A stretch of 600 nt of DNA from Escherichia coli (GTDB lineage Bacteria; Pseudomonadota; Gammaproteobacteria; Enterobacterales; Enterobacteriaceae). Shown here in pieces: positions 1 to 600 of this stretch (position 1 is the first letter of the stretch; every line of letters starts with the position of its first letter). Made by a program: the position numbers and the translations under genes. Under the pieces are notes generated by a model. That model was given only the letters and a program-made list of their open reading frames with translations. It did not search any database and had not been told where the DNA came from. The stretch lies in the NCBI RefSeq assembly GCF_003334335.1, contig NZ_QOWQ01000167.1; one strand, given 5' to 3'.

Positions 1-191
1 AGACACTGGTCCAGCCACTTCAGGTAATCATCGTCGCCCTTCCACTGGTTATCCCAGCCCTCAGGCTTCACTTTAAAGTACGGCGGGTCCGTGACTATCA
101 GGTCAACAGAATTTTCGGGTAACGACCGGATAAATTCCAGGCAGTCGGCGTTGATTAACTCACAACTGGATATTTTTACAGTATTAAGCAT
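1..191 (-). CDS. DNA amino-methyltransferase (probable N6-adenine, beta-class), 5' portion only; the gene runs off the left edge of the window
   Basis: Hand translation of the reverse complement from the ATG at 191..189 gives MLNTVKISSCELINADCLEFIRSLPENSVDLIVTDPPYFKVKPEGWDNQWKGDDDYLKWLDQCL, uninterrupted to position 1. An in-frame TGA sits immediately upstream (197..195), so the ORF cannot start earlier. The motif 'SVDLIVTDPPY' (DPPY encoded at 89..78) is the catalytic motif IV of amino-methyltransferases; its position ~35 residues from the N-terminus is the beta-class arrangement (YhdJ/CcrM/M.PvuII-like). D rather than S before PPY favours N6-adenine over N4-cytosine. This ORF is absent from the supplied track, presumably because it has no stop codon inside the window. 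Confidence 0.85.
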   Translation of the reverse strand, partial: MLNTVKISSCELINADCLEFIRSLPENSVDLIVTDPPYFKVKPEGWDNQWKGDDDYLKWLDQC

Positions 192-202
192 GGATCATTA
201 AG

Positions 203-210
203 CCTGTCTC
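203..210 (-). promoter_or_regulatory. weak candidate Shine-Dalgarno region for the methyltransferase gene
   Basis: Minus-strand 'GAGACAGG'; the AGG (205..203) is 11 nt upstream of the ATG at 191, a long spacer with weak complementarity. No better SD is visible. Confidence 0.3.
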
Positions 211-223
211 TGATAGGCTCATT

Positions 224-242
224 CTGCTTTTGCGCAAAGCAG
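224..242. repeat. short palindrome (7-5-7), candidate operator or leader hairpin upstream of the methyltransferase gene
   Basis: 'CTGCTTT' (224..230) and 'AAAGCAG' (236..242) are exact reverse complements separated by 'TGCGC'. Lies 33..51 nt upstream of the methyltransferase start codon. Confidence 0.45.
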
Positions 243-283
243 TGGGCCTGAGGTTTGCTTGTGATCCGGACGCATGAGCAGAT

Positions 284-314
284 GGCTGGTGAGTGCCCCT
301 AACACCCACCAGCC
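284..314. repeat. GC-rich inverted repeat / stable hairpin, function unknown
   Basis: 'GGCTGGTGaGTG' (284..295) pairs with 'CACcCACCAGCC' (303..314): 12 positions with one mismatch (292/306), 7-nt loop 'CCCCTAA'. Not followed by a T-tract on either strand, so not a canonical terminator. Confidence 0.55.
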
Positions 315-327
315 GCCCATTTACCAC

Positions 328-355
328 AAATAAAAAAGCCTTCACTGCGGAAGGC
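328..355 (-). terminator. putative Rho-independent terminator of the 65-aa ORF
   Basis: Minus-strand transcript would read GCCUUC-CGCAGU-GAAGGC (6-bp stem 338..343 / 350..355, 6-nt loop) followed directly by UUUUUUAUUU (337..328). The stem is short (4 GC pairs of 6), hence moderate confidence. The ORF's stop codon is embedded in the stem. Confidence 0.5.
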
Positions 356-539
356 GTCTGTAACAACCGAACTGATAGTCTGCCAGACCCGCCATAACCA
401 GCTGGGTCAGTATTAACTGGCAGCGTTCGCGTGAAAGGTAAGTATTCTGCGCAATCTCCCCGACTGTCGCCGGTTCGGTGGCACTTAATTCATTAAACAC
501 CACTCTGGCGGTTTCTGTCATATCCTGCTGTTTTAGCAT
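342..539 (-). CDS. small (65 aa) hypothetical protein, putative winged-helix/HTH DNA-binding regulator
   Basis: Part of the supplied 77-aa minus-strand ORF (342..575). I place the start at the ATG at 539..537 (MLKQQDMTETARVVFNELSATEPATVGEIAQNTYLSRERCQLILTQLVMAGLADYQFGCYRRLPQ) because it has an SD-like 'AAGGG' (552..548) 8 nt upstream, whereas the track's start at 575 is a TTG with no usable SD spacing. The stretch 'TVGEIAQNTYLSRERCQLILTQLVMAGL' has the helix / turn / recognition-helix pattern seen in winged-helix regulators. The stop TGA (344..342) lies inside a terminator-like hairpin. Coding status is moderately supported; the functional call is by eye only. Confidence 0.6.
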   Translation of the reverse strand: MLKQQDMTETARVVFNELSATEPATVGEIAQNTYLSRERCQLILTQLVMAGLADYQFGCYRRLPQ

Positions 540-547
540 GTCTTTTT

Positions 548-552
548 CCCTT
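548..552 (-). promoter_or_regulatory. Shine-Dalgarno-like site for the 65-aa ORF
   Basis: Minus-strand 'AAGGG' followed by an 8-nt spacer ('AAAAAGAC') and the ATG at 539..537. Confidence 0.5.
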
Positions 553-600
553 TTCCGGTTAACGTGACACACCAATAACTCTTGTCGAAAAAGCCAGCAA

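Follow-up and report, generated by a model that had tools for sequence, protein, structure and literature searches.

Locus and gene content

The window (the whole 600-nt stretch of Escherichia coli DNA analysed here) carries a small gene, the beginning of a DNA methyltransferase gene, and a structured interval between the two. The following features were placed on it.

547-552, minus strand: Shine-Dalgarno sequence AAGGGA, 7 nt ahead of the ATG of the small gene (read from the sequence)
342-539, minus strand: gene for a 65-aa protein, predicted winged helix (PHROG 331 / N15 gp51 family)
328-355, minus strand: intrinsic-terminator-like hairpin GCCUUC-CGCAGU-GAAGGC followed by UUUUUUAUUU (terminator scan and fold)
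306-313, minus strand: Chi octamer GCTGGTGG, in the 5' arm of hairpin P2 (read from the sequence)
186-326, minus strand: conserved structured RNA leader of the methyltransferase, with a P1/P2 domain, a P4/P3 domain and a long-range helix (fold and covariation)
1-191, minus strand: N-terminal 63 codons of an M.EcoGI/GII-type beta-class N6-adenine DNA methyltransferase, running off the window

Of 5426 complete E. coli genomes, 2283 (~42%) contain a match to the window, some at as many as 8 places. Among phages, there are matches in Stx2a, Stx2c, and Stx2d converting phages, phiP27, SfV, mEp460, and others, the best being 1720a-02 (97.7% DNA identity). In a 99%-identical chromosome (locus L001), the gene order is RusA, Q antiterminator, small gene, 349-aa DNA methyltransferase, tRNA-Ile/Arg/Arg, and lysis genes; in many Shiga-toxin phages, the small gene has Q on one side and the stx genes on the other. 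The stretch belongs to the late region of a lambdoid (Stx-type) prophage.

Right after Q (L001 5836-5945) there is a late promoter/pause region, TTGATT-17-TAAATT followed by CTCTAACGATGGG, and after the promoter comes a strong terminator (L001 5918-5933, CCCGCCGCCTGGCGGG plus a T-run). This region lies outside the window; window position 600 corresponds to L001 6001, about 55 nt downstream of it. The promoter resembles lambda pR'. The promoter and terminator are presumably pR', qut, and tR', and they would yield a short StxS-like RNA. Because they stand just after Q, the small gene is the first late ORF after tR', and the methyltransferase stands behind a second hairpin. The cassette thus reads, in order, small gene, a hairpin/terminator over its stop codon, a structured leader of ~140 nt, and methyltransferase.

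Coding status of the small gene

The small gene is encoded by a minus-strand ORF (539..342) with an ATG start (539-537), a TGA stop (344-342), and a 65-aa product, MLKQQDMTETARVVFNELSATEPATVGEIAQNTYLSRERCQLILTQLVMAGLADYQFGCYRRLPQ. The original prediction had placed a 65-aa protein at 342-539 without a strand; the ORF is real and lies on the minus strand. An alternative, TTG-initiated version would be 77 aa long (342..575). The ATG and an SD-like purine run at equal spacing are kept in the Salmonella, Klebsiella, and Morganella homologues, and the N-terminus MLKQQDMTE is conserved across other genera; for these reasons the 65-aa form is taken as the gene. Another frame of the window contains a 60-aa ORF, so the length of the 65-aa ORF proves nothing and it is the comparative signal that does.

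Homologues of the small protein form 341 clusters at 90% identity. At 50% identity there are only 65 representatives, all from Enterobacterales prophages or phages. In codon-aligned comparisons, the gene differs from that of phage SfV by 19 synonymous and 3 non-synonymous changes (omega 0.03) and from that of a Salmonella prophage by 23.8 synonymous and 11.2 non-synonymous changes (omega 0.08). Against Klebsiella, the synonymous sites are saturated (pS 0.82) at a pN of 0.10. These comparisons show that the small gene is protein-coding and under purifying selection; a lack of conservation or coding signal across related genomes, which would have spoken against the original prediction, is thus not what is seen. 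The ORF is short, flanked by two terminators, and annotated merely as hypothetical, and it might on those grounds be read as a chance ORF inside the transcribed leader between tR' and the methyltransferase, with no gene there at all. The omega values of 0.03-0.08 and the saturated synonymous sites effectively refute this reading, against which the conserved start codon and SD, the confident fold prediction for the product, and the extension of the family to N15-type phages also speak.

Protein family and predicted fold

The only strong family match of the small protein is PHROG 331, annotated as “unknown function,” which covers residues 1-64 (E 2.4e-37, 128 bits). Its members include N15 gp51, PY54 ORF59, and the P0177 protein. 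The remote homologues N15 gp51, phiKO2 gp51, and PY54 ORF59 were linked to the small protein by hhalign (95.6%, E 1e-8) and by matches to phrog_331 (E 6e-28 and 2e-26). The best Pfam match is TrmB (PF01978; i-Evalue 0.0013, 19.0 bits), with no domain at E <= 0.001; MarR and HTH_24 are further weak Pfam matches. Close homologues are named “TrmB family transcriptional regulator” by NCBI. With a sub-threshold domain match, this label is a fold-level guess and not a statement of membership, and the TrmB-type C-terminal sugar/effector-binding domain is absent, the 65 aa being a winged helix alone. In NCBIfam, Lrs14 (NF040939) scored 13.1 bits against a curated cut-off of 90. The earlier failure to assign the protein to a characterised family was therefore borne out.

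Other searches of the small protein gave the following results. The PDB sequence search returned a match to YraP only, which was taken as chance, and the PDB profile search gave weak matches to O-methyltransferase and PCI winged-helix domains (E about 1e-3). PADLOC gave a single weak match (SWIM_XIII, E 0.0011) and no defence or anti-defence family. There was no Pfam match to an HTH_3 (Xre-type) domain, and the model carries a beta-hairpin wing. A Com-type Cys4 zinc finger is not present in the protein, whose only cysteines are C40 and C59, with no CxxC. A literature search found no paper on the protein.

An AlphaFold2 model built from a 15-sequence alignment has a mean pLDDT of 93 and a pTM of 0.80. 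It has helices at residues 9-16, 26-33, and 37-49 and a beta hairpin at 53-62, and it shows the winged-helix topology H1-S1-H2-H3-S2-wing-S3. The best structural neighbours are the DNA-binding wHTH regulators BlaI, Lrs14, ArsR, and MarR. The structural and profile matches also include protein-binding winged helices, namely RPA32C, ScpB, PCI domains, and O-methyltransferase dimerisation domains. The model thus confirms the helix-turn-helix or winged-helix fold guessed from residue pattern, and the product is predicted to be a stand-alone winged-helix protein of about 65 aa. It is an uncharacterised member of a very common fold class, and its family is already in databases without a function.

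Positions conserved in the family are M1, M7-T8, C40, Q41, L44-T45-Q46, A50-G51, and, in the last strand, a basic pair. Among polar positions, conservation is highest at Q41, T45, and Q46 of helix 3 and at the basic pair of the wing. Family members are acidic to neutral, most of them acidic (median net charge -2, pI 5.1), and they do not conserve the arginines and other basic residues opening helix 3.

Linkage to an M.EcoGII-type methyltransferase

The downstream gene (191..1) translates as MLNTVKISS...DPPYFKV, with DPPY at residues 35-38, and the full gene (349 aa) is present in L001. Its assignment to the M.EcoGI/GII type is based on the DPPY motif, the Pfam N6_N4_Mtase domain found in its homologues, and the 97.7% identity of the window to 1720a-02. 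M.EcoGII is a prophage-borne, non-specific adenine methyltransferase of 349 aa, silent in the lysogen and harmful when expressed constitutively; phage 1720a-02 carries an enzyme very similar to it, and sequence-independent adenine methylation is known only for M.EcoGII itself (PMC5778455, Murray et al.).

An N6_N4 methyltransferase of 336-357 aa follows the small gene in every diverse homologue looked up. This set comprised Salmonella, Klebsiella, mEp460, SfV, a Morganella phage, an Stx2c phage, Hafnia, and four divergent metagenomic or genomic types (to 42% identity). The first IMG/VR scan yielded near-identical loci only, and diversity came from exact-protein look-ups and two further scans. 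N15 gp51, phiKO2 gp51, and PY54 ORF59 likewise sit directly upstream of a homologous methyltransferase (gp52). A census of 192 fetched loci found the small gene in 187, with the methyltransferase next to it in 171. The rest were nine loci at contig edges, one disrupted methyltransferase, four deletions or replacements that keep the 5' part of the leader, and two loci (L158/L159, one element) in which a gp51-like copy stands in a plasmid-like context without a methyltransferase. The enzyme is therefore next in 171 of the 178 loci with enough downstream sequence (96%); many loci are near-identical and these are not independent events, but the diverse subset is unanimous. Neighbourhood analysis of homologues, proposed with the original prediction, thus bears out the expected company of a methyltransferase. 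Spacer lengths between the two genes are ~150 nt for lambdoid phages, ~70 nt for the P0177 type, and 270-320 nt for the N15 type. The Q genes upstream come from three different Pfam families, so the small gene and the methyltransferase move as a unit.

The converse does not always hold. Phage LLS carries the leader and a methyltransferase of 77% identity, but its small gene is replaced by an unrelated 192-aa gene (gene 50), whose product belongs to phrog_18859.

The small protein might also be a DNA-binding transcription factor of the usual kind, acting on other promoters of the phage or the host, its adjacency to the methyltransferase reflecting only a shared mobile cassette of the late region. 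Its repressor-like structural neighbours and weak Pfam matches fit such a role, as do the persistence of the small gene after deletion of the methyltransferase in L012, L018, L078, and L191 and the gp51-like copy in L158/L159. We consider this reading unlikely: co-occurrence is 96% over divergent phages with different Q types, the protein is acidic and has no dimerisation or effector module, and no operator-like repeats were found in the interval. In addition, the methyltransferase-less copies keep the 5' part of the leader, which marks them as secondary deletions.

The stop-codon hairpin and Chi

Codons 62-65 and the stop codon of the small gene are overlapped by a hairpin with a GC-rich 6-bp stem (338-355) and UUUUUUAUUU behind it (-8.9 kcal/mol), and a terminator scan found it at 6246-6263 of L001. 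The earlier remark that the C-terminal tail is encoded partly within a terminator stem is thus correct. The hairpin recurs with different sequence in most lambdoid homologues (L003, L005, L008, L097, and L107), and the U-tract after it, by which it would qualify as an intrinsic terminator, is found in the E. coli and SfV types only.

In most lambdoid loci, the Chi octamer GCTGGTGG occurs on the late-sense strand in the 5' arm of P2. In L092 (about 3240) and L107 (about 1050), where P2 lacks Chi or the leader is absent, Chi is found instead just past the stop codon of the small gene. This suggests selection for Chi at a site that lies about 2-3 kb from cos and the lysis genes. Three prophage variants, L012 (about 2450), L018 (about 1045), and L078 (about 3225), have lost most of the leader together with the methyltransferase, with breakpoints a few bases past Chi (GGCGGCTGGTGGG|...), consistent with recombination at or near Chi.

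A structured RNA leader before the methyltransferase

The spacer between the stop codon of the small gene and the start of the methyltransferase spans exactly 192..341. It is conserved more than the small gene, being alignable from E. coli to Morganella where the synonymous sites of the gene are saturated. The leader (326..186, minus strand, 141 nt) has a minimum free energy of -62.3 kcal/mol and a z of -5.0. P1 (AUGGGC / GCUCAU) encloses a long hairpin, P2, and P4 (AGGC / GCCU) encloses hairpin P3. The two strands of the long-range helix are GAUCACAAGC and GCUUAAUGAUC; in it GGAUCACAAGC pairs with GCUUAAUGAUCC, the latter immediately 5' of the methyltransferase AUG. The AUG itself is also paired, so that the helix takes in the start codon and roughly 10 nt before it. 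A usable SD is lacking for the methyltransferase. With no usable SD and the AUG in a covarying long-range helix, something must open the methyltransferase start.

In a 17-sequence alignment, 89.3% of cells are paired compared with 26-43% for slid partners, and 24 of the 35 pairs change on both sides compared with 11.2+-2.0 in shuffles (0/500); this alignment was fitted to the covariance model. A plain MAFFT alignment of ten sequences gave 91% paired against 25-42%, and 8 two-sided pairs against 2.5+-1.2. The covariance model (ten sequences) finds the leader before the homologous methyltransferase in N15, PY54, phiKO2, YDC107_1, and Vibrio phage VHML. An Rfam scan of the window at E<=1 returned a chance P26 match on the wrong strand and nothing for the leader. 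We regard the leader as a candidate new cis-regulatory RNA, located before M.EcoGII-type methyltransferases, or before a Com-like ORF and methyltransferase together, in Enterobacterales, Vibrio, and Aeromonas phages. It is a more unusual object in the window than the small protein.

In Aeromonas phiARM81ld and Vibrio ST2-1pr, the covariance model places the leader upstream of a Com-like ORF that precedes the methyltransferase. The ORF is annotated in phiARM81ld (L099 1329-1544); in ST2-1pr (L105 about 1029-1140) it is an unannotated 36-aa Com-like zinc-finger ORF. In both, the 3' end of the leader falls on the start codon of the Com-like ORF. Com PHROGs match these Vibrio and Aeromonas ORFs and do not match the small-protein family. 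An 82-aa upstream ORF in ST2-1pr was considered as a remote homologue of the small protein and rejected (hhalign probability 2%).

The invariant UGGGC (window about 315-319) can pair with GCUCA of P1 (about 270-274) or with an invariant GCCCA (about 241-245). The phiARM81ld leader has compensatory changes in all three segments, which read GUGGC, GCCAC, and GCCAC. This one sequence hints that the leader may form mutually exclusive structures, that is, act as a switch.

Two other readings of the interval were rejected. A leader peptide might be suggested by a 33-aa ORF (MGGWWVLGAL..., 219..320, minus strand) whose AUG lies within the invariant AAAUGGGCG. Across 17 homologues the corresponding ORFs are 4-45 aa long and unrelated, and in one homologue the AUG is replaced through a compensated helix change. 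A methyltransferase promoter in the spacer was also considered; TGTGGTAAAT resembles the pR' -10 but lacks both the final T and conservation, and no sigma-70 site came up in the scan.

The small protein and the leader are separable both ways. L092 and L093 have the small protein and the methyltransferase with a 73-nt spacer, a plain terminator, a normal SD, and no leader, and the leader occurs without the small protein in LLS, VHML, and the Vibrio and Aeromonas phages. Its conserved unpaired motifs are kept where the small protein is absent and are therefore not maintained for the small protein. The original prediction had put forward the spacer 192..341 as the binding target of the protein. 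This is not established: the spacer is a structured RNA leader that also occurs in phages without the protein.

Possible roles of the small protein

The reading we rank first is that the small protein is a dedicated accessory controller of the methyltransferase, acting on nucleic acid between the two genes in analogy to Com-mom; we put its probability at roughly 0.4. It is ranked first because Com is the closest functional precedent and because relatives of the methyltransferase carry Com-like genes. The protein would act on the interval between the two genes, either on the leader or hairpin of the mRNA or on the same stretch of DNA, and would set the timing and amount of methyltransferase once Q-dependent late transcription starts. 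It would thereby do for the methyltransferase what Com does for mom (or for Hia5-type methyltransferases), using a different fold. Nucleic-acid binding by the protein, a target within this interval, and the sign of the effect are all inferred.

Purifying selection, the winged-helix model with its wHTH structural matches, the conserved Q41, T45, Q46, and wing basic pair, and the synteny point to such a controller. So do the buried start site, the Com-like zinc-finger regulator beside Vibrio and Aeromonas relatives of the same enzyme, and the silence of M.EcoGII in the lysogen. Against it stand the acidic to neutral charge of the family, the lack of conserved basic residues in helix 3, and the separability of protein and leader; the scan also found no conserved inverted-repeat operator or sigma-70 promoter in the interval. 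A further point against it is the position of the late promoter in N15-type phages, where the small gene is separated from the methyltransferase by this promoter and a terminator; the two genes of N15-type phages are therefore not bound to be co-transcribed. In lambdoid phages both genes are downstream of pR'/tR'. Given the acidic family and the separability, neither a classical DNA-binding repressor nor an obligate leader-binder is established, and this applies equally to the DNA binding and expression control of the original prediction. The specificity role that it offered as an alternative is unlikely, since M.EcoGII is active and non-specific without a partner (PMC5778455).

A protein-level partner comes second and is somewhat less probable. 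Here the small winged helix would bind the methyltransferase itself, either as an inhibitor or antitoxin-like buffer to leaky expression in lysogens or by directing or limiting methylation, with no gene regulation. Acidity, the separability of protein and leader, the independence of the leader motifs, and the N15 promoter position favour it as the second reading. The sole invariant companion of the small protein is the methyltransferase and not the leader, an acidic charge with a hydrophobic helix 3 suits a protein-binding winged helix, and RPA32C, ScpB, PCI, and O-methyltransferase dimerisation domains are among the matches. The enzyme is toxic (PMC5778455), and the small gene lies upstream of the extra hairpin/terminator, so leaky transcripts would give more small protein than toxic enzyme. 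However, M.EcoGII needs no partner for full activity, either in vivo or in vitro (PMC5778455), and no winged-helix-methyltransferase fusions were seen among the homologues of the small protein. The 150-nt structured spacer is also unlike tightly coupled toxin-antitoxin pairs, and close relatives of the methyltransferase lack the small protein (LLS).

A role as reader or shield of hyper-methylated DNA, in which the winged helix would recognise m6A-rich DNA and block Type IV restriction or sense complete modification, seems quite improbable. Winged-helix domains are known m6A sensors, as in the DpnI type (PMC11037411), the conserved Gln and Thr with a hydrophobic residue would lie on the exposed face of helix 3, and linkage to an any-context adenine methyltransferase is strict. 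The idea is nevertheless purely inferential; similarity to DpnI-type sensor domains was not detected by sequence or profile, the protein is acidic, and it matched no defence or anti-defence family.

Returning to control of the methyltransferase, a more elaborate version would be a two-layer switch, which we think unlikely. The ~140-nt leader would belong to a new riboswitch-like or protein-responsive RNA class in which the invariant UGGGC has two mutually exclusive partners, and an RNA- or methylation-state-sensing winged helix would open or lock it, as a non-homologous replacement of Com.

M.EcoGII-type enzymes, which methylate adenine in any context, have toxic effects on the host and find wide use as reagents for chromatin work and footprinting. 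Their presumed benefit to the phage is a blanket protection of its DNA against restriction. If the small protein controls or buffers the methyltransferase, it would be a missing part of a common anti-restriction module and could be a handle for taming M.EcoGII-type enzymes in the laboratory. The leader RNA may likewise represent a new family of regulatory RNAs, a proposal that is open to testing.

Comparison with known systems

The PHROG 331 relatives N15 gp51, phiKO2 gp51, PY54 ORF59, SfV orf47, and mEp460_052 are homologous to the small protein and similar in size, and they share the N-terminal MTE motif and helix 3. They also lie directly upstream of the same methyltransferase family, and all are uncharacterised.

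Regulators of the TrmB, MarR, ArsR, Lrs14, and BlaI types differ from the small protein, which has sub-threshold similarity to them, no dimerisation helices, no effector domain, and an acidic charge. Z-alpha domains (ADAR1, E3L, ORF112, and PKZ) use an Asn/Tyr/Trp contact triad; the small protein does not have this triad and shows no sequence similarity to them.

C proteins (C.PvuII, C.AhdI, and C.Esp1396I) are alike in that a small regulator-like gene stands beside DNA-modification genes, with presumed control over the timing of a dangerous enzyme. They are Xre-type all-helical HTH dimers that bind C-box repeats and mainly control an endonuclease, whereas the protein here is a predicted winged helix beside an orphan methyltransferase. 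The scan found no promoter-like site in the interval, and reading of the aligned loci shows no conserved inverted repeat, C-box-like or other, besides the RNA helices.

Com is a small protein whose gene adjoins mom and also the genes of the non-specific methyltransferases Hia5 and Hin1523; its function is to control how the harmful modification gene is translated (PMC3299994). The Com-mom pair of phage Mu and Com-Hia5/Hin1523 resemble the present locus in that a small gene stands beside a harmful, promiscuous, late adenine-modification gene whose start is occluded by mRNA structure. Com is a Cys4 zinc-finger RNA-binding protein, whereas the small protein is a predicted winged helix with two non-equivalent cysteines and is a candidate RNA binder. 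The arrangement also differs, as the Com gene lies between the leader and the enzyme and the small gene lies upstream of the leader.
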